From: Cyanidioschyzon merolae
Taxonomy: Eukaryota
Direction: 5' to 3' (one strand)
Length of the DNA stretch: 64,000 nt
Assembly (NCBI GenBank): GCA_000091205.1
Contig: AP006492.2
A program made the translations under genes and the position numbers. Below are positions 5,586 through 64,000 of this stretch, in pieces (position 1 is the first letter of the stretch; the number at the start of each line of letters is the position of its first letter). A model generated the notes under the pieces. It ran no database searches and had not been told where the DNA came from. It saw only the letters and a program-made list of their open reading frames with translations.

Positions 5586-7774
5586 AGTTCCACGATTTGC
5601 TTCCTTGCCAGACAGATCCTCGAAAAAGTCCGACTACAGGTTTCAGATCGCCCGAGCTGCGGTGCAGGGTTGTTTCCAGCACTGGTGCCGAGATCGCTAC
5701 AAACCCGTGATCGTTTTGTTCTCCAGCACTATAGGCCTCGCCAAAACTAGGTACAGTGCTCTTTGATAACACAGCTGTCGGATCCACGAAGGTATTGCTT
5801 TAAGTCAGAGGGAACGCTCGAGACTGAGCGCCCCGAATAAATCATGCTATCCGTTGAGGACACAAAGATGCACTTGAGGGCTTTCGCGATCGCCCAGAAG
5901 CGCCTTCCGGAGATTCGATCCAGAGCGATGCGCGTCTCGATGACGAGTCCGCCTCGGGGCGTTTTTTTCTTTTTGATGAAAAAACGTTTGCATTGACAAT
6001 GCATCCCAGAATTTGGAACGCACGATGGCTTCCGGGGATATCTCGATCATAGTGCACCTGTCCTCAAGTCCCATTATCCATACTACCTCTCTGATATATT
6101 GGTCGTTTCGTATGTTCTATCGAGCGCCGAGCCTGTTGTGAGCACCCGCTGTAGCGCTTATACCGCTGAAGCAGGTGCTGCACAGAGACAGAACGGCTTT
6201 GCCATACCACTAAGGGCGTCCGCTCGAGGAATGATTCACCTGAAACGGAATCAGGGCTATTTGTCATTCTGGGAACATGCAAAATGCGCAGACAGACCTA
6301 CTACCTGCGACAGCGCGAAGTGCTGTACTAGGATTCCACTGCGACCAGTGCGAGGCCCAACGCAGCGTCCTGTGCATATTCTCAGGATAAAATGCGTTGT
6401 GAACGAGCTGCGCAGGTCTTGCAGCAGCAGCAGCAGCAGCGGCAGCGGCCACTTTAGAGGCATACCGAGCTCTAGCCCGGTAGACTCGACCGGCTCGCGG
6501 GACCTTCCGCCTCGAACATAAGCTTCCGATAATACGGCGATCTATTTCCCCTTAAACGCTTATCGTAGAGCGGGAAAAAATTTTATATCGTTTCTTGTAA
6601 ATCGTAGGTCACTGTCCTTTTTCCTGTATGGCGCGCTCGATACGTGCATCTCCAAGTATGGCACTTACGAGACACGACGCATCTGTCGCCTTTGAAGAGA
6701 AACGCGACCGTGACGACACGTTTTCTTGATGTTCTAACGGGCAAGCTGTATTTGCGTGGAAGTCGTAACAAAATATAGTTTCCAGTTCGATTGTGTCTCA
6801 ACCCTCAAGTAAACATATTCAATTGATTTCTCGCAGTATATAATAGAAGGGTTCAAAGAGCGTTCTTTTTCACACAAAAAAATGAAAAGAAAAGCTATGA
6901 AAAAGCAAGTTGACGATCCTGGAGGCCCAGTGTCGCCTGCTGCCAGAAATAAAAACAAAAAACAGAGCCGAGTCCAGAAGAACAGGAAAAGAAGAAGAAG
7001 CAAAAGGGGAGGCCCTAAGTCGAAGGCGGCAAGAAAGACGACTGTTCGACGAGATGATGGTGAAAGCCTGTCTTCTTAAACAAATCAAGCATCCTTACAG
7101 GGAAAATTTGCGAGACGCTATCAAAAAACGATTCGATTCGTACTCCATTGGTATTTTCAAGGCGTTGTCAAGACTGATGCATTTGGCGAGGGAGATGTAC
7201 GAAAACGTGGCGCACTTGGAAACGGTCGAGATTCCGGACGATTTTTTCGGTAAGACATTTATTCGACACCTAATGCTTGGCACAGCGGAAACGCGGAGGG
7301 AAAATGTGCTAGTGCATGGCCTTTACGAAAAACATCCCCTCTACAGCTTCAACAGTACTCTGTACAGGGGTGATTCGAATGTTTACGTATAAGGGGCGAC
7401 GAAGTACATCACGAAACTGTGGTTCACGTGATCGTGAAACTCGAACGTTTCATGATACGCGCCGTGTTTGCGCTGTACCCGGGTATCTCTCGCAAAGGAA
7501 TATGGGAGATTATCAACGGCATCAAGAACGATCGCAAGCATGAAGGTGAAGTCGAATTCGTCGACACGAAGGCGTTTAACGACAGCACGAATGATACTTC
7601 TGTAATCCATTCGGTTATACAAGAGCACCGTGCAATCTTGGGGCCGGCGAATCCAACAGACAAGACATCAGAGTTGAAAAAAGATAAGGAAAGATACTAT
7701 CGTCTTATTCTGCGCTATTTCATGTTTCTCGACCGAGAACTCGAGCGAAATGCGGAGATGAAGCTGAGTGAAGA

Positions 7775-7781
7775 AAAAAAG
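7775..7781 (+). other. Candidate -1 programmed ribosomal frameshift site: slippery heptamer A_AAA_AAG at the junction of upstream and downstream reading frames of the copy-B nuclease gene
   Basis: Frame-0 codons are gaa|aaa|aag (7773-7781). The downstream conserved frame (frame 2) opens after TGA at 7769-7771 and codes EDWERRKAVLMGKRFNVVPM, conserved with copy C (EELGRRKAAIVGKRF). The upstream frame ends at TAA 7809-7811. Copies A and C change frame by -1 at the same place. Confidence 0.35.
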
Positions 7782-8128
7782 AAGATTGGGAGAGACGGAA
7801 GGCTGTCCTAATGGGTAAGCGCTTCAACGTGGTTCCAATGTGCAGCATCAAGTCACATTTCGTGAATATCGATTCGGACGTGTTTTACGGCATCATGAAG
7901 GAGATCAGTCCAGTGTTCACTGTTATCAGGGATGACTTCACCGGTGAAAACCGGGCGACGTACTTGAAGAACATCTTCAATTTCAAACGGCTCAAAGTGA
8001 GAAGCCAAAAGGTATTCACTGCGTTGATCGAGACCGATGGAGTAACCTTGTATGTACACTATCGGCGCTTGAAAGTGGACCGTCCGATTGTGCCTTTCGC
8101 TTCGCCCTCTGCGAAGCATTAAAAAATC

Positions 8129-8428
8129 AAAGAAGCGGATCCTGCGACACAGGAGGTGCAGGATGACGACTTTGTCGCTGACGCGGTGAAGGATGAAAAA
8201 GAGAAAGAGGCGGAACCTGTGATGCAGAAAGTGCAGGATAACGACCGTGTCGTTGGCGCGGTGAAGGATGAAGGTCAGAAGGAGGCGGATCCTGCCGAAC
8301 AGAATGTGCAGGATAACGACTTAATGGTTGACGCGACGAGGCATCAAGGAAAGAAAGAGGCGGATCCTGCCATACAGGAAGTGCAGGATAAAGACATTGT
8401 GGTTGGCGCGGATCCTGGGAACACGAAT
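8129..8428 (+). repeat. In-frame 75-bp tandem repeat, 4 units, inside the copy-B nuclease ORF just upstream of RuvC-I
   Basis: Units encode KEADPATQEVQDDDFVADAVKDEKE / KEAEPVMQKVQDNDRVVGAVKDEGQ / KEADPAEQNVQDNDLMVDATRHQGK / KEADPAIQEVQDKDIVVGADPGNTN. Copy C has a single unit (YEKEADPAIQKLQDSDFVVGLNPWNTN). Confidence 0.8.
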
Positions 8429-10585
8429 ATCATCACCATCGCAGCACCGAAGCGTGCGGAAGATGGCATGGACGGTAATTTACGCCAGAAAGACATGCGT
8501 CTGCTGAGGTTCTCGAGAGCGAGATACCATCGAGAATCCGTTGTAGTGAATGCAAGGATGATAATCGTTACGTGGAATGCAGGAATAAAGCATCACCTGG
8601 AAGCTTTGAGCGAGGCGACGAGCCGCGGAGCGGTCTATGAAGCTTTTCGGAAATTCATGGAATTTCGTGTTGCCCATTGGGATGCGCTGTGGGAGGAGTA
8701 TAAAAAGCCCCGGTGGGCTCGTCTGCGAATGAATCTATACGGTGTGAAGCAGCGGGCGTTTGCGAATTTTTTCAATCAGTTGAGCGCCTTTGAGGGGGAT
8801 GACCGTCAGAGGCTCGTAGTAGCGTATGGAGCAGGGCGCTGGAAGAACAGAAAAGGAACTACGCCAGCTCCAGCGACGAAGCTGTACAAGGAGTGCGCCC
8901 GGCGTCTCGTTACGATACCTGTATATGAGTTCCGGACGTCCTATACATACCAGGAACTGGGCTGCACGCTTCAGAGGGTAGAGATGGAAAAGTGCCAGAA
9001 GAGCGCTGAGGAAATTGCAAAAGTACGGACCGCTGGCGGAGGAGCAACTGTAAAGGAAGGCGAAAGTTCAAGGGTTACTCGTATTGGTGAGTACAGCTCC
9101 CAACGGCACGAAATGTATGGAGTTCGTGAACCGAGATTTTAATGCCGCTATCAATATACGGAGATGTGCGGTGCTGGAGAAAAGACCTCCAGACTGGACA
9201 CAAGAGGATTTTATTGGACAACCTCTCAAAGTCGAACTATATGAGAAAAAATGGAAGCAGACGTTGGTGGCCGGTCCAAAAAAACGGGGAGGCGTCTGCA
9301 CGTCAGTTGGAGACCCCTTGCCTAGGGCGCGTTCGCCACTACTGTACACGGCCGGGGGCAACGTTTGTCTTTTGAGAGGCGTTCGGTGCGGGCGCGTCAC
9401 GTCGCTTATTCAGAACGTATTTGCGAAGAGTACCTAGAGTATATGTGGTAATAGTTGATGCTTTTCGTGAAGATATTGCTGCCATGGCTGTAACAGGACT
9501 GATGTGACAGAAAATGTGGAAAATGGGCAACTCGAGTTCTTCTGTATTCGATACATCATCCGCTGCCTTGTCGTTTATCTATCTTCCGAGGGTCCTGTGT
9601 CCATTTATTAGCAACGGATCCGTTTACCAATTTGTTTGCAATGATATAGAACAAGATCAATTGTTTAGAATCGATACTGGCCGCTTCTAGAATGCCTCCA
9701 GCTGTGCTCAAGGTGCTGTGGTAATGCTTACATAGCGTACAGCTCGTCTCAGGATGTGACTGCCTGGCATGATGTGCCTCTGGACCGAGTAACGGTAACT
9801 GCGCATCTACGTCTTCACGGCTTACCACCACTTCGTTCTCGTTTTTTTCTAGTGTACAAGACATAAACATAATCCGGAAATCAGCACAACACTTCAGACG
9901 GTTTTATGGACGTAGCCTACGAGCAACGGTAGGCAACAGTGGTGAATATATCGAGACGATGCCTCGACCGCCAGAACAAGCTATAAGCACTTTCAATGTT
10001 AGAGCTATAAGTGCGCTGTGAGGCTGGCGGCCCTGCTTCCATTCGTGCCAAGCGGAGCCGGAGCCCGTAGGCAGGCGTCACGAATATTAGCTTTTCCTCA
10101 AGAGGAATCGGATTTTGGTGAAATTTGCGGTTGTACGGATCGAGTCAAATTTGCTCCAGAACCTCTCCTCAGGACTAGAATGTGCTCAAGTACAACGAAA
10201 CTCAAAAAACAGTTCCAGACGCTCTACTGCAGACATACTCGCTACATGCAACTCGGAAACCGTATTCCGACTACAAAGAGAAGAAAGGGTACCAAGATAC
10301 CGCCATTACCACCAAGGCTATCATCGGGGGCAAGCTCATAGGCATAGGTAATCATTCCTTTACGTTCCAAAAGCAAATTCTGGTCCATTCTTTCTGTTCA
10401 TCAGATCTCTGAATGTCAGCCCCCGAAGAGGACCTCAGATGACACTTCGCGCACAAATATCCACATTAACGCATTCGTTCATTCGTACTCTCGGGTCTTG
10501 TGAACATGAGTGGAATATTGTCGCAACAGAGGATCAGCATAGACGTGATCTAGACTGTGGGCAAATTAACAGTTGAAACGTTCGC

Positions 10586-18530: not shown

Positions 18531-21500
18531 TTATGCTTTTTTGGTTCGACAGAACGTTTCTACTGACCATGCATCCCATGTTTCCGGGTCGATATTGGCT
18601 TTCGGGAAAGCGTCCATCATGTTGGACTACTTCTGCACGTTACATCGCTTTTGCTTACTCTCTGCTGTACTGGTCGTCTCATTTTTTCTATTGTGCGCCG
18701 GTTGCCTGCCATGAGCACCCGCCGTAGCATCTCTATCGCTGGTGCGGATGCGCTACGAAAACAGAACAGCTTTGGCATACCACTGAGCGCGTCGGAAGAG
18801 GCATTGTACAAGCGATACGGAATCAGGGCTATGTATATTTTTGGGAGCCTCCAATCTGGACAGGCTGACCTTCTGCCTGTGGTAGCGGGAAGCGGTATTG
18901 TAGGATTCCTCCGCAACCAAGGTGATGCCCAGACCCAGTATACGCGCTCCTAGTGCCAAAATCAAATGCGTTTCGGACGAGGTGCTCAGGTGCGTCACAT
19001 CACCCACCACCGCAGAGTCACACGGCGTACAAGCCGGTAGAGTCTCGCGGCTTGCAGACCTCGCGCCTAAAAGGCAACTGTTTGACCAAACGCAAAAACA
19101 TCCTGCTTTGAACGTTTATTGTAGATGGCAATAGAACTTGCTATTCCGTTTGTGGATATTGGTTAGTTTTCGGCATTTTCTATTTCGTGCGCCCTGGCAA
19201 CGCATCTCGGAATCTGGCCGTCACTTCACACGACGTTCTTCTCGCCGATGATGCGAAACGCGGTAATGACCTCTTTTGGAGCTATCGCTCTATCGGGGCC
19301 AGTTGTATTTGCGCTCGAATCGTAGAGAAGGATAGTTTCGGCTTCAATTGTGTTTCATACTTCATGTAAGGATATTTAAGTGATTTCAGCCGTTCAAAGC
19401 AGAAGCGTCCAATGTGTTCTCCCCCAAAAAACAAAAGGTAGACTCATGTAATTGGAAGTAGAGGGTTTTGGATGGCCGGTGTTGCCCGAAGTTAGAAGAA
19501 AACGAGGAACAGTGCCTCGCAAAGAGAAACAGGACAGGAAGAAGAAGCAAATGGGGGAGGCCTTTTGTCGATGGCTGCAAGAGTGACGTCTCTACGATGA
19601 GATGGTGGTGGAATCCTGTCTTCTTCGACGTATAAAGGATCCGTACGAGGGAGAGTTGCGAGACGCTATGAGAAACCGTGTCGACTTGTACTCCATGAGT
19701 ATTTCCAAAGCGTCGTCACGACTGATGCATTTGGCGAGGGAGATGTACGAAAACGTGGCGCACTTGGGAACGGCCGAGATTCCGGCGATTTTTTCGATAA
19801 GACCTTTATTCGACACCTGATGCTTGCCACAGCGGAAACGCGGAGGGAAAATGTGCTAGTCCATGGCCTTAACGAAAAACATCCCTTTTACAGGTTCGAG
19901 GCTACTCGATACAATGCTGACCGGGATATTTACATGTACGGAGCGATGAAGTATATCACGAACCTGAAGAATCTTTTGGCAGTGAACCTCGAACGTTTCA
20001 TGATACGCACCGTGTCTGCACACTGCCCGGGCATCTCTCGCAAAGGAGTATGGGCGATTATCAATGGCATCACGAACGATCGTAAGCGTGAAGATGAGGT
20101 CGAATTTGTCAGGGAGAAGGCGTCATGCAGGAGTACGAATGGACTTCTGTAATCCGTGCGGCTATACAAGAGCACCGCGCAGTCTTGGGGTTGGCGAATC
20201 CAACAGACAAGATGTCAGACTTGAAAAAGATAAGGAAAGATACTATCGCCTCATCCTGCACTATTTCGTGTTTTTAGACCGTGAACTCGAACGCAAGGCA
20301 GCGATGAAGCTGAGTGGGGAAAAAATGAAGAGTTGGGGAGACGGAAGGCGGCCATAGTAGGGAAGCGCTTCAACGTGGTTCCAATGCGCAACATCAAGTC
20401 ACAATTTGTCACCATCGACTCCAGAACCCTTCATGGCATCATGAGAGAGATCAGTCCCGAGTTCAATGTTAACAGGGCGGAGGTGACCCGTGAAACCCGC
20501 GAGACGCACTGGAAGAATCCCTTCGATTTCAAACGTCACAAAGTCAGCAAACAAAAGAAATTCACCGGGATGATCGAAACCGATGGATTAGCCATGTGTG
20601 TACACTGTCGGCGGTTGAAGGCAAATCGTCAAGTTCCGTCTTCGATATTGCCCGTTACGAAGCATGAATATGAGAAGGAGGCGGATCCTGCGATACAGAA
20701 ACTGCAGGATAGCGACTTTGTCGTCGGCCTTAACCCCTGGAACACAAACATTATAACCATCGCTGTACTAAAGCGTCCGGAAGATTGCACCGACGGCAAC
20801 TTACGTCAGAAATATATGCGTCTTCTGAGGTTCTCGAGAGCAATATACAATGGAGAATCCGGTATGATCAATGCAAGGAAGAAAATCGAGACTTGGACTT
20901 CAGGAATGAAGGATCAAATGGAAGCTTTGAGCGAGGTGACGAGCCGCGGAGCGGACTTTGAAGCTTTTCTGAAATTCATGGAAGTTCGCATTGCGCATTG
21001 GGATGCGCTGTAGGAGGAGTATACAAAGCCTCGGTGGGCTCGTTTGCGTGTGAACTTGTACTGCGGGAAGCAGCGTGCATTCGCGAACTTTTTGAATGAA
21101 TTGAGTGCCTTGAAGAAGGATGAAAGTCAGAGGCTCGTAGTATCGTATGGGGCAGGACGCTGGGCGTCGAAGAAAGGGACTACACGTGCTCCAACCACAA
21201 GACCGTACAGGGAGTGTGCACGACGCTTCGTTACGATACCGATAGATGAGCTCCGAACATCGTATACTCACCATGAACTGGGACGTACACCTCAAAAAGT
21301 CGAGATGGAAAAGTGTCAGCAGAGCCCTGAGGATATAAAAAAGTACGGACCGCTGACGGAGGAGCAAATGGAAAGGAAGACGAAAGTTCGTGGACTCCTT
21401 GCATTAGTAAGTACAACCAATAATGGCAAGGAACGTATGGGGTTTGTGAACCGAGACTTTAACGCCGCCATCAATATCAGGAGATGCCCTGTGATGGAAA

Positions 21501-21718
21501 AAAAAAGACCCCCAGAGTCGACACGAGAGAGAATTCTGTTGGACAACCACCCAAAGTGGAACTATATGAGAAAAAGCTGGAATAAGTCGTACGTGGCCGG
21601 TCCAAAAAAACTGGGAGGCGTCTGCACCTCAGTTCCAAACGTTCTGACTAGGGCGCGTTTGCCGCCACTGCTGTACACCGCTGGCGACGTTCGACTTTAG
21701 AACAGCGTTGATGGTGCT
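18515..21718 (+). mobile_element. Fanzor/TnpB-like element, copy C
   Basis: Collinear with A and B across leader, ORF and 3' block. The right end (...gcgacgttcgactttagaacagcgttgatggtgctgcg) is shared with fragment E up to ...gttgatg(g/a)tgct and ends within about 4-8 bp of the WD40 gene ATG (21722). Confidence 0.65.
19551..21700 (+). pseudogene. Fanzor/TnpB-like RuvC nuclease pseudogene (copy C)
   Basis: ATG at 19551 (caaATGGGGGAGG). In-frame TGA at codon 12. Frameshifts near 19815 and 20100, plus the family-wide -1 junction at about 20320. In-frame TAG at 21011-21013 (copy B has TGG). The C-terminal part is continuous: IDELRTSYTHHELG...GKERMGFVNRDFNAAINIRRCPVM (RuvC-III). Confidence 0.6.
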
Positions 21719-30200: not shown

Positions 30201-33200
30201 CGAGGGCGACTAAATCCGTTGAGCAAGTGCATCCAAAGGCCGAGCAAGCTCGTTCGTCCTTTGCCTCCACACTATCGTTCGCTGAGTAGCGTCATTGCGA
30301 CGAGCACTCCCCGCGGCACACGACCTCCTTCTCCGCGTCATACATGGACTCTAAATGTCTGTAATGCTTTCGCTGATTGGACAGAAATGCAGACAAGCCA
30401 GGTACGCAATGAGCGGCAGAATTGACGGCCCCGGCCCCGCAGAGCACGATGCATGCGCTCTTAGTACGCTGCAAAGACTGGCGACCTGAGACCTCCAGCG
30501 CAAACGAGATTGGAGGCTTGTAGGTGTTCGCGAACCCAAGCGAGCGCTGCCCAGATGCTTGCTGTCGCTCGAGGCCCGCACCCCTGATACGTAGAAGGGT
30601 GTGCACGATCGGTCTAGCAGCGAAAGCATTGCGTCCGAACCGCGCTCAGTGAGGCCGCCAGCCAGCGGGTACGCAACCAGTTATACGCAGGACCTCCAAC
30701 GATCACCGCAAATTCCATGCATGAGATGAGAGAGCTCCGGCGTTCTACTTCGTGTTCGGATATAGCGGCCAAGAGAAGCACCAAAGATGCTGCACATGAA
30801 GAGACGCCTTAGCGCGCACGCAAGTTGGCCAGCGGATCCGTCCGCGTTTGCAAAGTAGCTGATAGCGTCGCGACGCTTTTCGAAGCCGCTCCAGTAGACG
30901 CAAGGTCCCTAGCGAAGAATGCCCTATGGCTACTCGGGAGACATGAATCTCCGGGAGGCACACTAGCCAAGAGGCTTGCTCATTCACGTACTCAGCGAAA
31001 AGAAAACAAACTGCCCGCGTTCAGCGCAAGCTCATGGTTTTCGCAGCGATCGCGTTTCGCGTATCGTCAACGTGCATTCCGCAACGGTAGTGACCCGCCA
31101 CCACTCCTGTTACCGCTCTCAAGGCGAGCTTCACAACTGTTGCTTGTCGGGTATCGTACGCGACCGCACCGGAACGACCTGGGACTGACTGCTGACAAGT
31201 CCATAAGCTCAATGGCCGGAACTCTTCAAATGGTGAGTCTCTCGAAGTTCACCCCATACATGAACACGCAATTGTCGTCTCCCAGGGTCCGATCCCGCAT
31301 TCGATGCTTCTGTGCAGCTCGAGCACATCACTCGATCCAGCCCTGCAATCGGGCAATAGTTTCCAGACAGTCCAGTATTACCTCCTGTTGCTCTTCTGCC
31401 TTCGCATCAGACTCCAAGAGCGCCCGGAAACGTGCCGTGGGGCGTGTCTCGGCGAAACGTCGGCGACATTGTGGAGGCTTCTCATGAAAAACCACAGCGC
31501 TAGCGACGCTCTCCGATATATTGGATTGTGCAGCAGCACTCCCAGGCCTATTTCTCTCGAAGCATGCCTCGTTTCCCGGTAAAACGTCACGCGAACTTGA
31601 GGGCTGACCAATAGAGCTCGCGGGCCCCGCCCGCTCCCTGGGGGTTACCGACGAAGACGTGCTGGCAGCCTCAGTCGAGTTCCGCGCTGCTGCTTCACTA
31701 GTCTCTGCGTCGAGACGTGGCCACCGCCGCCGACGCTCCCTGAGATACGCATCCAGCACCTCAGGTGGTGCGTCTCTGGTTGGAGGCTGAGGCATCGTCC
31801 CGCCGGCGCCGTGTGGCTTGCGGCCTGGAGGCCACCACTGCGGACCAGCGCCTCCGGCACAGCCCCGTCGCCAGCGCTGCTGTAACCCGCTCTCCGTGGG
31901 CATACGGAGCGGTCTCCGAACTTAACAAGGGCCAATACACGCCTTACGAGATCCACGGACGACCCTGAGGCGGCAAGTCTCGTCCAAGGCGACTGCTGGT
32001 CATGGAAAACTGCTCCGGCGGAATCACACGTTTGCGTCAACGAACCGCCGTATAGATTGCAAAGCAAGCGTCACCTCGGCGTTACCTAGGAAAGCAACGT
32101 CTGACTGTAAACGGGTTTCTTTCTGGCGGGCCGTTTCCGACCTGCCAACAGCGCTAACGAACGAAAATCTATAGCGTTGCTGTTGCGGCAGGATCTATGC
32201 ACCTCTTTCGTAGATGGGATGGAGCCTCTTTCATGACCTCTTCATGGGCTTTCCGTTCAAATTGTTCTGCAACAAGGTACGTTGAGCAGCAGAAGATGGA
32301 CTTCAATATGCAGTGTACTCTATAGATCGTAGAAGAATTGCTTGTAGGATACACATTCTTTCCTGAAGAGTTCCAGGAGAACTCGAATTCTCCTTCGGAT
32401 GAGTCTTAACACAGTACACAGATGCGTGATTCACACGGAAAGAAAGAATCAGATGCGCTCCGCTCCAGAAACCGATATTTTCAGAGACTTTTTGAGGTCA
32501 CTGGTAGAGAACAACTGATTGATCGCTATAGAGAAAACCCGAGCGGCGAGCATGGACACCACGGGAGTCTCTGTTTCTCAACAGCTCGTTCCCGGGATCC
32601 TGAAAACACTGGGATACAGTCGGAAAAATGAATCCTATTTCAAGCACGGCCGTCTTGCACGGAAATCGCAACGGTAGCATTCCTGGAAAGCCGCTATCCG
32701 GAGAAAGCACCGGAACGTCGGTTTGTTTTTCAGTCGATGACACTTGCTTCGGATGAAACGGTCAGAACGTATATTGGTAATCGCGGAGACAGAGCATGTT
32801 ATCTGTACGAGTGAGCTCGAAGAGAACAAAGATATCATCATCGATTCTAGCTAGAGTGGATACACTCGGCGGCGTCAGTCGCGCTCGTGGAGCAGGCTCG
32901 CTCGACAGCACCCATTGGCCTAATAATTGAATACTTTTCACCTGAGGTCTGGTGACGTCCTTCTATTGAACAACGTAGCATTTCGCCATCCACTTGCGGT
33001 TGGGATTCTGCCGATTCGATCAAGGGTTAGAGTAGCTTTCCATTCCTGCGCACACTCCATGTTTCAACCCTATTGCATGAGTGTTTTCTATTGTGAATCC
33101 TATTGATCGCTTCAGTGGGCAAATCGCAAAATCGCTCTGTACAGGGTGACACTCTGGCACATGGTGTCTTTCATCCGCATTGACCATCTCCTCCGGCAAG

Positions 33201-33229
33201 GCCCTCATATAAGGGTATATAGAAGCGCG

Positions 33230-33660
33230 TTCATTTCCAAAAAAAAAATAAGGAATGAGCCGCAGTGCGCACTTCAGTAGGCCGAGATGGAGCGCCGGCA
33301 GCCAAGCGCATCGGTAATAGAGAAGCACGCAGAGCTGACAGAGCCCCAAATGGTACTAATGGCACGAGTTCGAGGAATCGGTGTACTGATGAGTTCCATT
33401 AGAGGCAATGCACGCATGGAATTCATAAACCGAGGCGTCAACGCCGCCACCAACATCAGGAGATGTTCAGCGCTCCAGACGAGACCTGCGGAGCATTCGC
33501 GAGCGAACGTTATCGTGATGCTTCTCAGGCTCCAAGTTTGCATGGAGAAACTGTAACCGATAGCAGGGAGCCGGTAAAAAAGGCTGAAAGGCGTCTGGGC
33601 ATACCTATTAATTTCCATTAGATGCTCGTGAAACGTTGTCGCTCCATCGGGCATATTCCA
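33230..33660 (+). mobile_element. Short 3'-end derivative of the Fanzor-like element (fragment D)
   Basis: ORF 33287-33556 encodes ...TEPQMVLMARVRGIGVLMSSIRGNARMEFINRGVNAATNIRRC, a decayed RuvC-III NAAINI region, followed by a diverged ggcgtctg block. It shares a subfamily-specific sequence and the same 5' breakpoint (...cacttcag(t/a)aggccgagatgg) with fragment E. Confidence 0.5.
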
Positions 33661-34809
33661 AGATAGATACTTTTTACTCATACGTTTGATATCAGGGCCA
33701 GGGGTCGTTTACACAGCGGTGCGACGTTCATCTGCAAGACGATATACGTCGATGCTCGCAAAGTGCTTCAGAAAGCGCTGCACAAAAGCGCATAGCGAGT
33801 CTGAACGTTGACGATGAAGTCGTCAGCGGCACCTGTCCGCAAAGGCCACGACACCCAAGTAACATGGACGACAAAACGCTTCAGGAGCCAGCCATCTGCA
33901 AAAATCTCTGTTCCTCGAACGTCTCCTGAGTGCTCTGCCCGACAGCAGAACAGGCGACAACCAGTACCCTGATGGGATTCATTGCGGAAACATAGGTACA
34001 TTGTCGCCGCCAAGGCATTCTGAGGTGCAATGAGCGAGGTGCGTTGTCTGACAAGCGTTTGCAAGACAAAAGTTGTGCATGCGAACGCCTCGAATGCTAC
34101 CGTCTACGTGCCCGCCTCATTCGAAGACTCGGCATACGCTAGTCGCAACGTGTCCAATACGGTACACGCACCGCGTTTATCATGTTGGCACTGCCGCTGT
34201 CCCGAAGCTGTCGTCTCGAACGAGGCGTCTGTAGTGATTCCTCGTGGTACGCGGCACCCGTCTGCATACGCGTAGCAGCTGCTGGCGCAATCCATGGGCA
34301 CTCGAAGTGGATTCCCTCCAAAAGATGCAGGATATCACGATCATGCACCGTACTAGACGTATGGGCATCGGGAAGTGCTGTATCTACGGCCGAAGCGGCA
34401 CTGTACGAGACCGTAACACCATGAGCACAGGTTCTGGGAGGAATACTCGTCCGGAATCTATGCAAATTCGGAGGTGCAGTGCAATGAAACTCCAAAGATT
34501 TTCAGATCTTTATGCGTTGCTCGGGACGCCTGCGCTTCACTAGATCCCGGCTTTCGGGGCGTTAACGCGCCATCAGTTTTCTCGGTCCACGATGCATCAA
34601 GCGTCTCTCGACGACAGCAGACTACAGCGTGATCCAGGCCCGCGCACAGACTGCGGGGCAAGAGCAGCTCTGTTCCAGAGTTGCTAGGCTGAAAACACGC
34701 ACCACCAGGCGCGAGAGCACGAACTACGTTTTTCCATTAGAGCCCACCGCATCCGAACGAATATACGTCGCCATTACTAGTGCATACTGCTCGCAAAATG
34801 CAGATGGTG

Positions 34810-51627: not shown

Positions 51628-53568
51628 ATGGATGCATTGCATACCGCAGGCGGTTGCTCCAGCAGGAACGTTCGTCGCAGCGTGCCAGCACAGCGCACTA
51701 GGAGGTCGTGTTTCTTTTCCTCTCGACGACAAGGTCATATGCACTCCGCTTTACAACCAGCCGCACAGCCGTGTTTTATCCTGGCGCCCGGTTTGACCAG
51801 TAACCGAAATGGGTTGACGCGTGCTTCGTGCGCGCACGAGCTGCGGCGAGCGCCTTGCGTCTGGCTCGCAAGGCGTCGCTTTCCCCGGCAAACAGCAGGC
51901 CCACAGCACGATGCAAGTTGTCTGGTGCCAAGCTTTCATCGACAGGAACTCCATCGCCAACGAGTTGTTGCGCTATCGCGCCGTCGTACGAAGCGCACTG
52001 CCCCACTAGACATAGTGGCTGAGCGAAGCGACTCGGGCAACGCCCAGGCCGTTTCCGGAACCCAGTTTCAGCAGGAAGCGACTCCGACAGGCGCTCCCGG
52101 CAAGGTCTATGACCGTGTCGTGTGCAAGTTTGGTGGCTCTTCTGTCGCCGACGCGGAACGTATGCGTGAGGTAGCGCGACTTGTGCGGCGTCAGATTGAG
52201 CTGTCCCGCCAGTACCCAGTGGTGGTGCTGTCGGCGATGGGCTCGACCACAAACGACCTCATTGCCGCCGGAGACGCCGCACTTTACGAAGGTATCGTTG
52301 ACTCGACAGTGGTCCGAAACCGCGCCTACGCGGTCTGTGATGCTCTCGGCCTGGACCGGGAGGCGCTCGTGGACCCCCTGCTCATGCAACTGGACCAGCT
52401 GCTCATGGGTGTCAAGTTCATTCGGGAGCTCTCGCCGCGAACCCGAGACTACCTGGTCTCGTTTGGCGAGCGGCTTTCGGTTCGCATTTTCGCAGCGCAT
52501 CTGCTGTACAATGAAGGACTACCTGCACGCGCCTTCGATGCGTTTGACGTCGGCTTTCGAACGGACTCGAATTTTCAGAATGCGGAGATCCTCGAAGAGA
52601 CCTACGACCTTATCCGAAGCTTTTTCGAGCGGGTTGTAAGCAACCAGACCCTAGCGGTGATCACCGGTTTTATTGCGAAGGACAATGAGGGTCACGTTAC
52701 CACTCTGGGGCGCGGAGGCTCCGACTTGACTGCCACCACGCTGGGTGCAGCGCTGGGCGCCACCGAAGTCCAAGTCTGGAAGGACGTCGACGGTATCATG
52801 ACAACGGATCCGCGTCTAGTGCCGAATGCGATACCCGTGGCTGAAATGTCTTTCGAAGAAGCCGCCGAGCTCGCTTACTTTGGCGCCAAGGTTCTGCATC
52901 CGGTGGCGATGCAACCGGCGTTGCGCTTCAATATACCGGTGCGCGTGAAGAACTCGTACAATCCGGAAGCACCGGGCACTGTGATTCTTCGACGGGAGTC
53001 CGCGACCATGGATCGCCCTGTCACAGCGCTCAGCGTGAAACGCGGAGTCCAGTTGGTGGATATTGTATCCACGCGTATGGTCGGTGCATACGGTTTTCTG
53101 GCGCGGGTGTTCGCGTGCTTCGCGACCCACCAGTTAAGCGTGGACGTTATCGCTACATCGGAAGTGAGCCTATCGCTGACACTGGACGCAAACGCCTGCG
53201 ATATGACGCGGCAGCAGCGCATCATTAAGGAACTGCAACAGATCGCACAGGTGAGCTTCAGCTCCGGACGCGCCATCATTAGCATCATCAGCAACGTTCG
53301 GCGGAGTAGCGAAATTCTGGCCAGAGCGATGAAAGTGCTCCACGAGCAGAACATCGAGGTACAAATGATATCCCAGGGAGCTTCCAAATTCAATATTAGC
53401 TTGGTAGTCCACAACGACGAAGCTATCACTGCAGTGCGCGCCTTGCACGATGAGTTCTTCCATTGCTCGCCGTCGGCAAGCAACGGAACGTCGACGTCGG
53501 CGACGGCAGCAGCAGCTGCTGCAGCAGCAGCGAACGCAGACGGCGTCCGCGTCGCGGGTGCCGCTTGA
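51628..53568 (+). CDS. Aspartate kinase (monofunctional, two C-terminal ACT domains), with long Arg/Ser-rich N-terminal extension (transit-peptide-like); true start may be downstream
   Basis: The core begins VVCKFGGSSVADAERM ... VVVLSAMGSTTNDL ... and ends with ACT-like LSVKRGVQLVDIVSTRMVGAYGFLARVF ... ISQGASKFNISLVV. Stop is TGA. Confidence 0.85.
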   Translation: MDALHTAGGCSSRNVRRSVPAQRTRRSCFFSSRRQGHMHSALQPAAQPCFILAPGLTSNRNGLTRASCAHELRRAPCVWLARRRFPRQTAGPQHDASCLVPSFHRQELHRQRVVALSRRRTKRTAPLDIVAERSDSGNAQAVSGTQFQQEATPTGAPGKVYDRVVCKFGGSSVADAERMREVARLVRRQIELSRQYPVVVLSAMGSTTNDLIAAGDAALYEGIVDSTVVRNRAYAVCDALGLDREALVDPLLMQLDQLLMGVKFIRELSPRTRDYLVSFGERLSVRIFAAHLLYNEGLPARAFDAFDVGFRTDSNFQNAEILEETYDLIRSFFERVVSNQTLAVITGFIAKDNEGHVTTLGRGGSDLTATTLGAALGATEVQVWKDVDGIMTTDPRLVPNAIPVAEMSFEEAAELAYFGAKVLHPVAMQPALRFNIPVRVKNSYNPEAPGTVILRRESATMDRPVTALSVKRGVQLVDIVSTRMVGAYGFLARVFACFATHQLSVDVIATSEVSLSLTLDANACDMTRQQRIIKELQQIAQVSFSSGRAIISIISNVRRSSEILARAMKVLHEQNIEVQMISQGASKFNISLVVHNDEAITAVRALHDEFFHCSPSASNGTSTSATAAAAAAAAANADGVRVAGAA

Positions 53569-53879
53569 GAAGTAGCACCAGGTAGCGCGCTACGGCGGTA
53601 GAGGTGCGCGACGCCACCTCGCGTGGCACGCCCGTTGTTGACCCAATCGATAGGAACGATCGGATAAACTCTGACTTGATCGCACGATGCGGGTGTTCGC
53701 TCGTTTGTAGCCGAGCAGCAGTGAGCGTCAATCGATGCAGCGCGTGACGCGCGACGCAACACGCAGTTGATGCGCTGGGTGAATCGGACGCGCTACGTCA
53801 CTGTGCGGTGAAGCGGCACGTACACAGATGTTCCAGAGAAAGCGCACTGAACGCCGGCCAGCTTCAGACATGATGTCAT

Positions 53880-56800
53880 TCAAGCTGAATCGGCACAGGG
53901 CGCGAATTCGCTGCTCCTGATCTGCGTCGTACAGGCGTCGACAGTGCTCTCGGTCGCATCTGATAGCAGCACTGGGCGGCTGGGGCGCATACCTCGACGA
54001 TCGCGCATGCGAGCGGCGAGCCCATTGGCGGGCGCACGTGCGGTCGGCGCTGCAAGGGCATCCACGCCACGAGCGTCTTTCGGGGCGGGGGGTGTCGTCA
54101 ACATCAGAGGCGACGACGACGATGAAGATGATGACGGCGAGGACGCAAACCATGAGGTTGGCTGCGTTCGCTCGTCCGCTACGGTACCGGTCGGTGGTTG
54201 GCCAAGCGACTGTCCAGCAGTCGACGGTACGGTCAAGTGTCGGTCTGGAGACGCACTGCTTCGGGGCGGCGCTCGATGCATTGCTAATGATTCCCTCGCC
54301 TCCGAGACCGCGGCTGGGCGACCCTTACAACGACCAATCAGCGCCTCGATAAGGAGCAACGGGCGCTCAGCCAGCCGTTTGCGCCAAGCAGAGGCAAGCG
54401 TCCTGCTCAGCTGCACCATATCGTCGAGCGCCGACGCTGCATCCCGGCACGCGGACAGGCGCAAACCGCTCTGGGATCGCTGGTGGTCGGCGCGCCTCTC
54501 GAATGCTGCGCTACAGACGAGCAGCGCATGCCAACTGAACATATGCGATGAAACTGCTGCAGTAGCGGGCTCAGCGTCGCCAAAAGCAGCTGCAGCGGTC
54601 CAGCACTGAGCCAAGAGGTCCAGCGCGCGCAGCCAGCCGCTGGTTTGATACAACGGCGCCGGCCAAGTCTGCACCAGCACCTCGTAGAGCGGTAGCAAAA
54701 GGCAGTGCCCTAGTCGTGGCAATCCGTAGATGCACCGCGCGAACTCGTGATTCTCTGCAGGTGTACATGCGTCCAAATCGTGATGCGGCCGAGGCAGCAC
54801 ACACTTACCGACGAATGCGAAAAGCCACAACAGACTGAACGCTCGATCCAGGTACAGGCGCGAGCACCGACGCCCATCCAAGCGCGGGATCGCGCGCGCC
54901 ACGGTGCATACTGCGGTGCGATTGGCACAGCAGAAAGCAGCGAGACGGCGTAGGCCGTCCACTTCAGCGAGTAGCGCCCGCCATTGAAGGAACACGAATC
55001 GCATGATGGTCTCGGGCGGCACCAGGTAGGCTACCGCCAGAACAGGAGGCTCGGACTCGGTACCGAAGCTGTCCTGCTCCCAGGCATCCTGGTGCTCCTC
55101 TGCTGCCGCCGAGCGTCGCCGACATCCCCCCGAGTGCACGCGAATGCAGGCACAGAGAATCTGGAGAGCAGCTTGAAGTGGCACATCGCCCAGCAAAGCG
55201 TCCATCAATGCCTGTTTCCATTTGCTGTTGGGCGGTGCATGCTGAGTAAACCGCTCACCGGTGCTCGCTTCTGGCAAAGTCGGCCTCTGATCCCGATAGA
55301 AACGCTGGGTTAATTCGTGATGCAACTTGTCAGCGATATCGCTGTCGTGGACCATCTCGGACAGGCACAAAGACGGCCATGCACTGAGGTCGTCCGGCAC
55401 ACGGCCATATCCGTGCGCCTCCAGCAGCAGCAAGACTGCGCGGCTTCGGGCGCACCAGGTTGGCTCAGCGACCTGCGCGGCCTGTTCCCAAAAGTGAAAC
55501 TGCATGATCGCAGACGCGAGTTCAAGAAAAGCTGGTAACTCTGACCAGGGCGCTGCACTTGGGTTGCGCACAGCTCGCACGAGCTGACGCAGCCCATACT
55601 GCCCTAACTCGTAGAGCGCGAGTCCGGCTTGGCGGACCCACAGCGCCCACGCGGCAGCCGCCTGCGGGCTGCTGTCGACGGTGGTGCCCGCGTGCCTCAC
55701 CAGCGGGCCGAGTCCGGGTTCGGTTTCCGTTGCCGACAGGGCGGCGAGGCGGGTCCAGCTTGGCGGTAACGTTCCTACTCGCTTCGAAGGGTTGTAAAAG
55801 ACGGAGGCGTTCTCGGGCTGCAGCGTCCCCAGGTCGCTGCGGCGCGCTCGCTCGCCGTGCCAGTCGCCTGCTCGACCGCATCGCCTCAGCGCCTGCTGGA
55901 AACAGGGTGCGTCTTGCTGCAGTTCAGACCAGAGGTCATCGGGGTCGAGCGCGACGCGCTTCCGACTCGTGCCAGTGCCGCGAATACCGTCTGAAGGGGA
56001 GCATTTTGGAACGACAATCCAGGTACTAGGACGCTGTGCCGCCCAGCGAGCGGTGCGCATTAAGCCGTGTCTGTTCGCCCTCTGGTCACGTTCACGATCG
56101 AGCCTCGCCTGCAGTGGTTGCCAGCCATCAAGGAAGGCCTTACGCGCATGATCAACTGGCGTACCGCACTCCGTGAAAACATGCTCAGCAAAATGTTCTA
56201 CTGGAAAGAAACGCACCCATGCCGCATGGTAAATCTCGACTGCAGCATTCATCACAGAATCCGTCATGCTGCACGTAGTCGTGGCCGTTGCACTTTCCAG
56301 GTGCGGCGCCTGCATGACAACCGCATGAATAAGGCGGAAAAGATCGAGCTCCTCGGGACACATCAGCTGCAGAAGCAGTTCCTGGGCGATCGACTGCGCT
56401 TCCCGATGCGTTGCCAGTCGAGCTTCCCGATCGAAAGCCGCGGGAATGTGCTTTTTCGACCAAGGCGTCGGCCGATCAAGGCATGCTGGTTCGCGGATAA
56501 ATGCCGAGAAGAGGAGCAGGCAGAGCTCCACATCGGACCACGTGGCCGGCAACGCACGAACGGCACTAACGAACATATCCGCGATCCAGTCCAGCGCAGA
56601 GAAGGGAGCATCTTCGCCGGCACTTCGTTGATGCGTGCGGTGGCGCACCAGAAGCGCTCCAAGCTGCAGCACTGCTGCGTGGATCTCATCGAGCGCTTCA
56701 CGAAAAGCAAGCGCTGCTACCACAAGAGGCGACGAATTCGGTATGGACGCGTCGGCGAAATCCGTCTCCGAGGCTCGGCTCGGTCGCTGTTGCGGTGTTT

Positions 56801-57587
56801 GCTGGAGTACGTTCGCGATCTGGCGTATAAGCGATGCTGGCGGAGGCAGGATGACTGCAACAATAAGTTTCATGAAGCTCCTGAGCAGATGCATCAGAGC
56901 TTCCAGACGCGCATGACACGCAGCTGCGGCTGAACTTGTCATGTCCATGTCTGGGAAGCTTCGCGTCGGTGGCGGTAGATACGCAAAGCTCTCAAGGGCG
57001 ACGCCCAGCACACCAGTACGAAGAAGGCCGCGGCGCGCAGCCAGCGGCGCCAGACCGGCCTCCGCCACCACCCCGTCAGCGTCGACGTACCAGTCCAGCG
57101 TTGGAACGGGCGGCGCTCCATCGGTATCGACCTCACCACCGTAGGAGGGATTTAGAAACTCATCCCATTCACCGAGGAACGCGAGCAGGTCTTGGACCAG
57201 GCTCGAGAGCGCTCCCAGATCCACGTCCTGGCTCCCGGCCTGGGTTATTAACAGACACGGGCTCGCGTGTTCCACCGGAACGCCCGAAGCGTCCCAGCTG
57301 CCAGGTGGTGCAGTCCCCAAAGCCGGCAAACTCTCGTTGCTGCCAGCACCAGTGGCGGTCGCGCCGGCGTCGCGCGAGTTCGCAGCCTGTACCTGGACGA
57401 GAACCCTCAGACCTCGCACAATTTCGGAGGTCGTGCACGAGAGCGCCTCGGCTGCTTCTCTGGGTAGCAACGCATCCTCGGGTGCTGCCTCGGTAGCACG
57501 ACGTCGCATCTGTACAGTGCCAAAAGCGCTCCGTGAGGGGTACGTACCAACGCGTTCAGCAGTGCACGCACCAGCACCCAAGCACAC
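53880..57587 (-). CDS. Large hypothetical protein (1235 aa), predominantly alpha-helical, no family recognised
   Basis: A continuous 3.7-kb ORF in DNA with a standard genetic code is very unlikely by chance. The C-terminal region is Ser/Pro/Arg-rich. It overlaps smaller opposite-strand ORFs that I regard as artefacts. Confidence 0.5.
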   Translation of the reverse strand: MCLGAGACTAERVGTYPSRSAFGTVQMRRRATEAAPEDALLPREAAEALSCTTSEIVRGLRVLVQVQAANSRDAGATATGAGSNESLPALGTAPPGSWDASGVPVEHASPCLLITQAGSQDVDLGALSSLVQDLLAFLGEWDEFLNPSYGGEVDTDGAPPVPTLDWYVDADGVVAEAGLAPLAARRGLLRTGVLGVALESFAYLPPPTRSFPDMDMTSSAAAACHARLEALMHLLRSFMKLIVAVILPPPASLIRQIANVLQQTPQQRPSRASETDFADASIPNSSPLVVAALAFREALDEIHAAVLQLGALLVRHRTHQRSAGEDAPFSALDWIADMFVSAVRALPATWSDVELCLLLFSAFIREPACLDRPTPWSKKHIPAAFDREARLATHREAQSIAQELLLQLMCPEELDLFRLIHAVVMQAPHLESATATTTCSMTDSVMNAAVEIYHAAWVRFFPVEHFAEHVFTECGTPVDHARKAFLDGWQPLQARLDRERDQRANRHGLMRTARWAAQRPSTWIVVPKCSPSDGIRGTGTSRKRVALDPDDLWSELQQDAPCFQQALRRCGRAGDWHGERARRSDLGTLQPENASVFYNPSKRVGTLPPSWTRLAALSATETEPGLGPLVRHAGTTVDSSPQAAAAWALWVRQAGLALYELGQYGLRQLVRAVRNPSAAPWSELPAFLELASAIMQFHFWEQAAQVAEPTWCARSRAVLLLLEAHGYGRVPDDLSAWPSLCLSEMVHDSDIADKLHHELTQRFYRDQRPTLPEASTGERFTQHAPPNSKWKQALMDALLGDVPLQAALQILCACIRVHSGGCRRRSAAAEEHQDAWEQDSFGTESEPPVLAVAYLVPPETIMRFVFLQWRALLAEVDGLRRLAAFCCANRTAVCTVARAIPRLDGRRCSRLYLDRAFSLLWLFAFVGKCVLPRPHHDLDACTPAENHEFARCIYGLPRLGHCLLLPLYEVLVQTWPAPLYQTSGWLRALDLLAQCWTAAAAFGDAEPATAAVSSHMFSWHALLVCSAAFERRADHQRSQSGLRLSACRDAASALDDMVQLSRTLASAWRKRLAERPLLLIEALIGRCKGRPAAVSEARESLAMHRAPPRSSASPDRHLTVPSTAGQSLGQPPTGTVADERTQPTSWFASSPSSSSSSSSPLMLTTPPAPKDARGVDALAAPTARAPANGLAARMRDRRGMRPSRPVLLSDATESTVDACTTQIRSSEFAPCADSA

Positions 57588-59336
57588 GCAGATGCGTGCT
57601 TTCGCGGGAACGCGGTGTCATGCATCCGAGGTGTCGCTGCGCCTTTTGTGCATCCGTACGGGGGGCGTGCGCGCGATCGCTCTTCGGCAGCGCGGGAAAT
57701 GGGGCAGCATGCGTGCGTGCGTGCGTGCGCCGCGGATCATCTGCGCAGCGGCGCTTTCGATTCGTTGGTATCGGCAGCAGCAGCAGCTGCTGCACCAGAA
57801 GCAGACGAGCCCCTGACGCCTTCAAAGCAGCATCCTCACTAGATTACAAGTGCTAACTAGACTTTTACTGGCAACTGGCATCCATATTGAACGTCACAGC
57901 AACTACTGATACTCGTTGTTGGTCCGGCATTAAATAATATGGACGTACGAGGGCTCGCGGGACGCAGGGTTCGTGGCGCGCGTTCCTGGCTCCAGTCATG
58001 CTGCATCGAGCAGACGCCCGCCGGGCCATCACCAAGCCGTCCAGTGTCTGTCAAACGTCTCGGGGAGCGAACTTCGTGCTGCAGGAATGTATGACTGGGT
58101 ACGGGGTGGCGTGCACGGTTTCAGCAGCCGATGCCTCCGGTTCCGCAGGCACCGCTGTGCTGTCAGAGATGGCGACATATCGCATCGTTCGCCGCGAGGG
58201 CCAAGCGGAGGCTCTGACATTTGGCTACATTCGCGTATCCAGAAACGCTCTAGTTGGCTCATTGCTCCTGTCCAAAAGAAAGAAAATGGATGACTCTAGC
58301 TGGCCCTCGTCGCCAACCGGGAGAGACCGATTCTTTCGGAATTCTTGGGAGCGTCATTCCTTGACGTTCGTTGCCTTCCGTGCGCTCCTGTGAGCGAATC
58401 TGTAAACGTATGCAGTCTGTTTCATGGGTCTGGAAGTGTCGGTACTCGCAAAACGACATCAATGCTGGTGGATGGCGCGCCAAGTGCTTCGTCCGGCTGG
58501 ACGAACTTTCTCAAGCACTAGTCTCTGTGTGAGATCCATGAGACAATCCAGATTGCACCGGATATATAGTTATCATCCGCAACCAGGCAAGTGACTGCAG
58601 ACTCTTTCCAGATGCATCTGCGTTCGACCACACCGGCGTTACGCGAGAGTTGCTGTCGCACACAGGGCATTGTGCCACAGACGTTTCGGGGCGGCGGTAA
58701 TCCCAGGTGGTCTTGTCGACCCTGGATGCGTCGTGGCTGTTCCCAGACAGAGATAGAACGGTATCTGTCGCCTTTACGCACGTTGGCCTGAGGCTCTGCA
58801 GCCAATGATACAGAAAACACAGCCGAGTTTTTGCGTACAGATCATGTAAAGCGTGCAGCGTATAACGACTTTAAATGGTTCATGTGAGTAACTCCTGCAT
58901 CCATATGCGCCGGGTCTGCGCCTTTTTCACTTCCCCGAGAGCCCAGCTGCGCACGCTAGAGTCCGCAGCGCAGACATGGAGCGTGGTGCAAACCAGAGCG
59001 CTTTCAAACGTACTCATGTGCCATCACTCCGGAAAACCCAAGCTTCACGTAAAAACACAGCACCGATGCATTCACAACAAGTTCCGTAAACGTTTACGAT
59101 GCAAGGCAAAGCATGCCGATCTTTTCGTGACCGTAGGCGCTGCTTGGACGCCTGCGTATCCAGCTCCAGGACCAAAGGCACTGCTCCTTGGACCCAAGCT
59201 GCATCCCGGTCGGCGTGAAGCGCATCCATACTCGCCGCAGACGATTACGGTGTGATCGCAGTAGCCAACACAATGCAAGTCACGCTGAAACTACCAGCGA
59301 GCTATCGCAAAGCGCATCGAGAAACACGTTAAGAGC

Positions 59337-60306
59337 TTACAGAGCAACCTCGGAAGCCAATGAAACAGTATTCACGCTCAAGCTACCAGCAGAGGGCAAT
59401 GCCGTGTTCGCGGGAAGATACCCCCCGACCTGCAACGGGATCGGTAGCGTCACCAAACGCAGCGGGTTGCGGCCCTGGTTTGAGTCGTCCTCAGAGGCTC
59501 TTTGCCCGGTATCTGACACTCGTACCAGGAAGTGGATGCTCAGAGTCCATCGCACCTGCACAACGCGAGTCGCAAAACTAACCGGAGTATCTTCCTCAGA
59601 CGGAATCCGTGGCGTCCAGTGCCACCTACAAAGGCCTGCACAAGGCTCGGCGCGCTCTGCGTACCTCCGCCGATGGCACAGGGTCGCACGCTTGCGCCTC
59701 TTAGGAGGCACTCGTGCGCATTTTTCGAGGCTGCTTTTCGAGAAATCATTTGCACATTCAGGATGCAGGATTTCCAGTGCGTCCAGCGTTCCTCGAATGT
59801 AAACACAGCTTGAAGTCGCCACGCTCAAGTCAATAGACACAGGCACCAGCTCTCCGAGCACGAATCCACGGCGCTGTAAGTGTACCGTGGCGATCCGACC
59901 CAGCCCGGTCGCCTCGACGCGTGCTATAAAAGGCATCCATACAGATTCGAGTTGGTCCAGCGGTGCTGTCGTAGGCGAGACGCTCCCGCTCCGTAGACCA
60001 CTGGCTTGCGTCGTACCATCCACAACCGGTGATGTACCCGAGTTCGTGCCGTCAGCCGCATGCGATCGACTTGCGATTCCGCTTTTCCCCGGCAACGTGT
60101 CCAGTATTGTCGAGTCGTCCCATTCGCTCGGCGTCGTTACCGGGTAGGCTGTCAGTCGACTGTTTGAGGTCGCGGACAGGATAAATTCAAGGTTGTTGGA
60201 GATCTCCAAAGCCACCTGGAAAGCCTTCAGCTCCATGCGGAGCGGCGCATCGGCATTTCCCGCTGCGTGCTCCTGTGGCGGCTCGCCTCGTGTAGAGACT
60301 TGTTCC

Positions 60307-60337
<31 letters not shown>

Positions 60338-63890: not shown

Positions 63891-64000
63891 CCCCGAGGGA
63901 GTCGGACCTGCGCAGGAAAGACAAAACGTGCCACCGGTTTGTATCCGTGTGCTGGAAGCCGCATTGATTCGCCCAGTGGATCGATCATTCCGTTGCACGA

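Follow-up and report, generated by a model that had tools for sequence, protein, structure and literature searches.

Two short sequences, here called copies D and E, resemble the 3' end of a long element that occurs three times in the window (the whole stretch of 64,000 nucleotides that was analysed). They raise the question of whether both descend from a single truncated progenitor that was itself copied, and whether what was copied is a guide-RNA-only derivative of a TnpB/Fanzor element, as the original prediction held. The window looks eukaryotic, having a GC content of ~0.55 and long open reading frames on both strands. Comparison of the window with itself by blastn and tblastx identified A, B and C as direct copies of one element, ~3.2 kb in length and 72–78% identical to each other:

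193..3377, plus strand: long element A, a degenerate Fanzor1 element with an approximate 5' boundary
5965..9383, plus strand: long element B, a Fanzor1 element that keeps GADPGNTN, EFRTS and NRDFNAAINI in a broken frame
18537..21718, plus strand: long element C, a Fanzor1 element with a mutated RuvC-I (GLNPWNTN), the window copy nearest to E

All three RuvC motifs are found in B; those of C are partly mutated and none is recognisable in A.

The parent elements A, B and C encode Fanzor1. Pfam scans assigned no family to the window ORFs or to full-length homologues, two distant relatives having sub-threshold matches to PF07282, and a PDB search with a single sequence gave no match, so that a profile was needed. 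Searching the JGI metagenomes with the A/B/C consensus yielded ~200 close relatives, and an exhaustive HMMER search yielded 1,232 relatives, many of them 600–700 aa long at 30–40% identity. In an alignment of 68 family sequences the motifs GxDPG, DEFRTS and RDxNAAxNI are invariant (D484, E656 and D725 of P0008). The profile of these 68 members matches the solved Fanzor1 structures PpFz1 of Parasitella parasitica (9cf0, E 9e-22), SpuFz1 of Spizellomyces punctatus (8gkh, E 1.3e-12) and GtFz1 of Guillardia theta (9cer, E 2.8e-8). Additionally, the seven top Foldseek matches in the PDB for an AF2 model of a family protein (pLDDT 81.6, pTM 0.79) are all Fanzor1 (E 4e-16 to 1e-12, TM 0.5–0.73). Because profile matches and fold matches both lead to Fanzor1, the predicted TnpB/Fanzor identity of the parent is confirmed. 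The C4 zinc finger of the 2013 Fanzor definition is not evident in the A/B/C family. Many homologues (P0001 etc.) bear a precomputed Pfam assignment, PF26935; local Pfam-A gives none for the same proteins.

To sample the family further, we aligned the C-terminal peptides, used this alignment to scan contigs of the JGI metagenomes and kept 79 loci (numbered with an L below). This sample is biased, since matches were ranked by their similarity to E and the best 80 were taken out of at least 480 that tblastn confirmed. Loci that overlap the window are 98–99% identical to it, and for this reason the metagenome loci appear to come from the same organism as the window. The Fanzor1 family is very abundant, with three copies in 22 kb of the window and the confirmed matches spread over about six JGI projects. 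The 79 loci contain 50 non-redundant 3' ends, and most copies are 80–90% identical to the consensus; the expansion is therefore old. At L018 704–800 the last ~49 bp of the element are duplicated in tandem (CCGCCACTACTGTACAC...GCGTTT twice), which may mark the exact 3' terminus or slipped termination.

Homology among independent long copies begins at CGATGACAAAACGTTT.ATTGAC.ATGGATCC and in every case follows a T-rich run, with sampled 5' ends at ~5965 and ~18537 in the window and at ~1184, ~1958 and ~1245 in L067, L010 and L071, respectively. The T-rich run could reflect a preferred target or a preference akin to a TAM. There is also a resemblance between the first ~17 nt of the long copies and the 3' terminus GGCGTTTGTTGTTG when the latter is reverse-complemented, and the CGATGACAAAACGTTT start and GGCGTTTGTTGTTG end could form an imperfect terminal inverted repeat. 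Just 5' of RuvC-I lies an in-frame 75-bp tandem repeat of KEADPATQKVQDNDFVVD-like units (8129–8411 in B), which is present in 1 to ~4 copies per element, occupies consensus positions 2340–2406 in many loci and coincides with the sole low-confidence segment (residues 384–471) of the Fanzor1 AF2 model. A second 75-bp tandem repeat (AGGGAATTCCCTCCGGCGG..., units 96% identical) is located directly 5' of C at 18363–18530, and the 5' flank of A (~100–190) contains sequence related to it; this repeat may be a piece of the element 5' region or a preferred target. A 77-bp tandem repeat at 36085–36383 of the window (~3.9 copies, 75–80% identity) is unrelated to the Fanzor elements.

The portions of D and E that derive from Fanzor1 are the following:

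33243..33600, 3' limit approximate, plus strand: Fanzor1-derived part of copy D, from blastn/tblastx and nhmmer
33710..33760, plus strand: possible decayed 3' terminal block of D, TACACAGCGGTGCGACGTTC...ACGTCGATG, a weak assignment
63398..63850, minus strand: Fanzor1-derived part of copy E, with the element 3' end at ~63398
63405..63435, minus strand: terminal hairpin of E, ACGTCGTTCGA / CTT / TCGAACGACGT, dG −19.5 kcal/mol on the sense strand

As predicted, D and E are matched to the 3' end alone, with blastn and tblastx aligning them only to the last ~440 bp of A/B/C. E 63398–63835 is 74% identical to C 21278–21718 by blastn, D 33255–33520 matches C 21273–21541 at the protein level by tblastx, and D 33243–33487 is 70% identical to E and 68% identical to C. 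The match between D and E has a blastn E value of 1.6e-23 in the comparison of the window with itself and is therefore not due to chance. In both copies similarity to the long element is lost at C ~21273. At the sequence level D reads MERRQPSASVIEKHAELTEPQ and E reads MGSRLQSASAVEKHEEVTEQQ compared with MEKCQQSPEDIKKYGPLTEEQ in C, and the peptides quoted in the original prediction are all present.

The Fanzor1-derived part of D starts just past the position of RuvC-II, contains an 89-aa ORF at 33287–33556 and has a degenerate RuvC-III, NRGVNAATNI, in which the catalytic D is replaced by G. E has a 98-aa ORF (63806–63510, minus strand), the RuvC-III motif KRDLNAAIH and a 3' non-coding tail. This ORF is 97% identical to P0121 (L001 1917–2213), meaning that the Fanzor1 C-terminal relic of E is annotated as a 98-aa gene in a public JGI metagenome; P0121 is probably a false gene call. 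Both copies had been thought to run to the 3' terminus of the element. E does so, with an intact hairpin at 63405–63435 that is preceded by the conserved block CCACTACTGTACAC (63437–63451, minus strand). D does so less clearly, as its tail matches the nhmmer profile at 33555–33599 (E 4e-5), homology dwindles at ~33600 and no good terminal hairpin is left. Beyond this point there is a weak collinear nhmmer match of 33710–33740 to terminal-block positions 97–126 (E 0.023).

Similarity between D and E extends further than their similarity to the long element. When D was compared with reverse-complemented E, the alignment went on upstream of the supposed start, up to the end of the window. Exact-protein searches with two other window ORFs gave no record from which to extend the window. 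P0121, by contrast, led to L001, a contig of JGI metagenome 3300050360 that covers window 64000..53509 at 99.3% identity and carries a further 1,722 bp. L001 1006–2120 aligns with window 32308–33487 at 67–68% identity (blastn, E ~1e-40). Homology between D and E thus reaches ~885–935 bp upstream of the junction with Fanzor1 sequence, and adds the following features:

32308..33242, plus strand: 5' part of copy D, ~0.9 kb of non-Fanzor, apparently non-coding DNA common to E and F (the boundary is perhaps ~30–45 bp further upstream)
63851..64000, minus strand: last 150 bp of the 0.9-kb 5' part of copy E, the remainder of which lies past the window end and corresponds to L001 1006–1722

The junction falls directly past RuvC-II, with ...DEFRTSYTHHELG on its 5' side in the parental reading and CTLQKVEM... 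on its 3' side. The 0.9-kb 5' part has no match to A/B/C by blastn, tblastx or phmmer with full-length family proteins, and nhmmer detected no homology to the ~45 long copies. A profile of the parental 5' 700 bp has no nhmmer match in D, E or F, and nothing at their 5' boundary can be recognised as the parental 5' terminus, in which CGATGACAAAACGTTT comes after a T-rich flank. The possibility that the 5' part is a diverged parental 5' end or internal parental sequence was rejected upon nhmmer searches that were negative in both directions. A coding origin was also rejected, given that tblastx shows no preferred frame, no clean ORF emerges from the majority consensus and Pfam gives no match; a codon-position test gave p=0.047 in one sub-window only, in a frame that differs from the longest stop-free frame.

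These alignments indicate that the D/E repeat unit is ~1.35–1.45 kb long and is composed of ~0.9 kb of unrelated non-coding DNA followed by the last ~440 bp of Fanzor1. This is contrasted by the ~450-bp unit of nuclease C-terminus, 3' block and terminal palindrome that was originally proposed, since two thirds of the actual unit is unrelated non-coding DNA. The identical 5' breakpoint that had been reported for D and E does exist, in the sense that the match to A/B/C ends at the same base in both, but it is not where the unit starts. With the breakpoint being an internal fusion point, no target-site signature is to be expected there.

Two further copies of the unit were found among the metagenome loci. 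Copy F (L050 3055–~4425, with orthologues L041, L055 and L059) contains the whole unit with the same 5' boundary as D and E, while copy G (L008 384–~975, with orthologue L012) shares with D, E and F the junction plus the 135 bp that precede it, and then diverges. In ~510 kb of sequence comprising the window and the loci, nhmmer with a profile built from the 0.9-kb 5' part detected only the D, E, F and G groups. None of the ~45 sampled long copies has the D/E/F/G junction, upstream DNA or marker substitutions. For example, the marker GAGCGC[AT]TCGG, coding for 'SAS', is present in E, F and G and with one mismatch in D (AAGCGCATCGG), and it is absent from all sampled long copies. Nine alignment columns carry a base that is present in at least three of the four copies and in no more than 5% of the other 47 aligned copies, as compared with a mean of 0.12 and a maximum of 3 shared-derived columns in control quartets of randomly chosen long copies. 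The subfamily-specific substitutions claimed for D and E are thereby borne out.

That junction, upstream DNA and derived substitutions are common to all copies shows that the fusion happened once. Collectively these comparisons support descent of D and E from one rearranged progenitor that was later copied, as opposed to independent deletions, in agreement with the original prediction; the junction, the upstream ~0.9 kb and the substitutions common to D and E are found again in F and G. The suggestion that D and E are also set apart from the A/B/C type is true of the marker variants but not of overall identity. Over the Fanzor-derived part E is 73% identical to C and 74% identical to F as compared with 60% to D, and pairwise identity among the four copies ranges from 60 to 74%. 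All shared-derived sites are located within the first 112 bp past the junction. In a neighbor-joining tree of the Fanzor-derived 440 bp, D and G group with 100% bootstrap support, the four copies together receive 22% and F is placed beside C. Either the 3' two thirds of the Fanzor part have undergone gene conversion by long copies or the signal in this region is too weak.

A shared progenitor could also have been multiplied by plain segmental duplication of a chromosomal region that carried a single truncated Fanzor1 relic, in which case the composite would never have transposed. The small number and old age of the copies, the lack of an identified TSD or TIR at the 5' end and the slightly fuzzy 5' boundary are all in keeping with this explanation. 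We nevertheless believe it to be unlikely, as the four copies end at or near the parent 3' terminus (E, F and G stop where the long elements do), three of them start within ~30 bp of each other, and the flanks outside the unit are unrelated between copies. Random duplications would not stop repeatedly at a transposon end. The positions of these boundaries suggest that the composite was mobilised as a transposon. Neither the long elements nor the D/E/F/G composite encodes a transposase.

Without RuvC-I and RuvC-II, none of the four copies can make a nuclease. The original prediction viewed D and E as guide-RNA-only, MITE-like units, and in this case they would be functional ghost loci in which the 3' tail and hairpin form an omega-RNA scaffold, the 3' flank provides the guide, and the Fanzor1 of intact elements uses both in trans. 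E, F and G, which have no nuclease ORF, do keep the entire 3' non-coding tail and hairpin, where an omega-RNA scaffold may lie (that of D is degraded). Furthermore, in 45 of 47 family copies the terminal hairpin has the lower folding energy when read from the sense strand, with means of −13.4 versus −9.6 kcal/mol, although the copies are related and the count is hence not a probability. This strand bias points to a structure formed by RNA or by top-strand single-stranded DNA.

Conservation of the tail tells against such a function. D and E do not have both parental terminal repeats, nor do they exhibit an omega-RNA region conserved in sequence and structure. A search of the whole window against Rfam gave no match, and in E, F and G conservation of the 3' tail does not exceed that of the dead coding part, while the tail of D has decayed. 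RNAalifold predicted a 3-bp helix alone from 46 tails. When the helices CCGGUC/GACUGG, CGUCU/AGACG and GGCG/CGCC were specified by hand they were paired in 82–95% of cells, but covariation in these three candidates was not above that of shuffles, with the copies too alike for this to be an informative test; in a second structure string used for the tail helices, one helix was mis-registered. The window's own long copies are degenerate, and four old copies that are 60–74% identical, found among the best 80 of at least 480 matches, compare poorly with the 134 conserved loci of S. punctatus. We therefore find it improbable that D/E/F/G are functional guide-RNA loci, and the guide-RNA-only unit of the original prediction is not supported. 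The four copies instead seem to have drifted apart without detectable constraint, judging from how their sequences differ. Under pure drift, the open reading frames of at least 98 codons that E and F keep at ~25% divergence are somewhat surprising.

Two sequence and register variants of the hairpin occur among the 47 copies, GACGTCGTTCGA-CTT-TCGAACGGCGTT and AACGTTTTTC-TTTT-GAAAGGCGTT, and each has mismatches that can be read as G.U pairs on the sense strand but not on the other. Examples in the window are located at 63405–63435, 21670–21705 and 9350–9383. Two readings of the termini, one as Helitron2-like (sub-terminal TGTAC plus the 3' hairpin) and the other as a TIR pairing GATGACAAAACGTTT with the reverse complement of GGCGTTTGTTGTTG, were not adopted, the matches being too short.

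Two explanations that assign a protein-coding role to D and E are extremely unlikely. The first, that they represent the final exon, or the C-terminal section, of a complete but diverged Fanzor1 gene with an unrecognised or intron-split upstream portion, can appeal to a superficial likeness between a splice acceptor and the AG found before the junction in all four copies, and to the fact that introns are possible in Fanzor genes (PMC10530073), but phmmer with filters off found nothing before the junction in six-frame translations of the 1.9–2.2 kb upstream of D and E, where the 5' part has no preferred tblastx frame, convincing codon-position signal or Pfam match. The second, that the ~90–100-aa ORF (P0121) is the functional product of a domesticated small protein, draws on the ORFs of 89, 98 and >140 codons that are open in D, E and F, but it is opposed by differences among the four copies that are even over codon positions with no codon-position bias, by the in-frame stop in G, by RG in place of the catalytic RD in D, and by the fact that a partial RuvC domain is unlikely to fold alone.

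The Fanzor1 family contains other shortened copies. When the loci were mapped to the long-element consensus, other 3'-only fragments were found to start at ~2340, 2457, 2724, 2834, 3068 and 3291. Since these fragments differ in breakpoint, truncation looks to be a general process in this genome, with D/E/F/G as one discrete lineage among its products. Heterogeneous breakpoints had been named beforehand as the mark of random truncation of the long element rather than of a discrete short subfamily; they do vary across the family, and D/E/F/G still constitute a single lineage within it. There are also internal-deletion copies that have both ends (L066, L060/68/69 and L007/10), which are more promising than D and E as classical non-autonomous or ghost-type elements. 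At L066 2832–4434, the 5' 0.55 kb and 3' 0.94 kb of the long element are retained.

Taken together, we consider it likely that D and E belong, with at least two other old paralogues, to a low-copy, chimeric and protein-less derivative of a Fanzor1 element. This derivative originated in a single fusion of ~0.9 kb of unrelated non-coding DNA to a Fanzor1 element just past RuvC-II, with the last ~440 bp, comprising a RuvC-III remnant, ~65 nt of tail downstream of the stop and the terminal hairpin, being kept. The composite was probably a product of abortive or 5'-truncating copying, a process that would also have left the other 3'-only and internally deleted copies of this genome. Subsequently the ~1.35–1.45-kb composite was most likely copied as a unit to new sites via the parent's own 3' end, with the machinery for its spread presumably supplied in trans. 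The present copies, which have no nuclease capacity, have since drifted apart. A more elaborate version, which we regard as very doubtful, is that D/E/F/G constitute a past or present trans-acting guide-RNA cassette in which the foreign 0.9 kb serves as promoter for the Fanzor1 3' scaffold. Each copy would then add its 3' flank as a guide for the genome's Fanzor1 proteins, and the cassette would represent a second, independently evolved form of ghost locus, arising where Fanzor1 has expanded to a very large number of copies.

The main value of these results is at present one of annotation, in that the D and E loci, including the 98-aa 'gene' of E, are Fanzor1 relics. They also illustrate that a shared breakpoint observed within a 64-kb window may be an internal fusion in a longer repeat rather than the end of an element. 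The dozens of diverged Fanzor1 long copies with a strand-specific hairpin are a resource for studying Fanzor1 movement. If D/E/F/G were active guide-RNA loci, they would be the second case in nature of Fanzor guide cassettes that encode no protein and would indicate that such cassettes can arise by fusion to foreign DNA, beyond internal deletion.

MITEs and internal-deletion derivatives are non-autonomous elements that arise once and are amplified in trans, and MITEs are typified by short length (under ~800 bp), TIRs, a TSD and high copy number. The Fanzor1 family has its counterpart to these in the true both-end internal-deletion copies described above. D/E/F/G differ from MITEs in that they do not show both parental ends or TIRs, are much longer and are barely amplified: the unit is ~1.35–1.45 kb, no TIR or TSD was identified, and four copies were found among the best 80 of at least 480 matches.

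Another related system is that of S. punctatus, which has 134 ghost Spu-1 loci of ~550 nt that contain no Fanzor ORF and whose omega-RNAs work with SpuFz1 (Saito et al. 2023, PMC10432273). These loci are bounded by both 30-nt inverted repeats, and the repeats and omega-RNA regions are strongly conserved (PMC10432273). Like ghost Spu-1, D/E/F/G are protein-less, keep right-end sequence of Fanzor1 (degraded in D) joined to sequence other than the Fanzor ORF, and occur in several dispersed copies. Unlike ghost Spu-1, they are ~1.4 kb long, number four among the best 80 of at least 480 matches, are 60–74% identical, keep ~330 bp of dead coding sequence, have no recognisable parental left end, and are known from sequence.

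The pattern seen in D/E/F/G is the same as that of the chimeric and 5'-truncated Fanzor1 elements described earlier. Sets of chimeric Fanzor elements have one terminal region in common with the rest wholly different (Bao and Jurka 2013, PMC3627910), and among the Chlamydomonas elements CRe-1, 2 and 3, 5'-truncated Fanzor1 copies with over-represented 3' ends sometimes carry a short non-Fanzor 5' sequence (PMC3627910). Those examples either keep the Fanzor ORF or belong to an identified superfamily (Helitron2, Mariner, Sola2 or IS4), in contrast to D/E/F/G, whose common part with the parent is the last 440 bp alone. Both protein-less ghost elements and chimeric or 5'-truncated Fanzor1 elements are thus already known from published work, and D/E/F/G are a modest addition to them.
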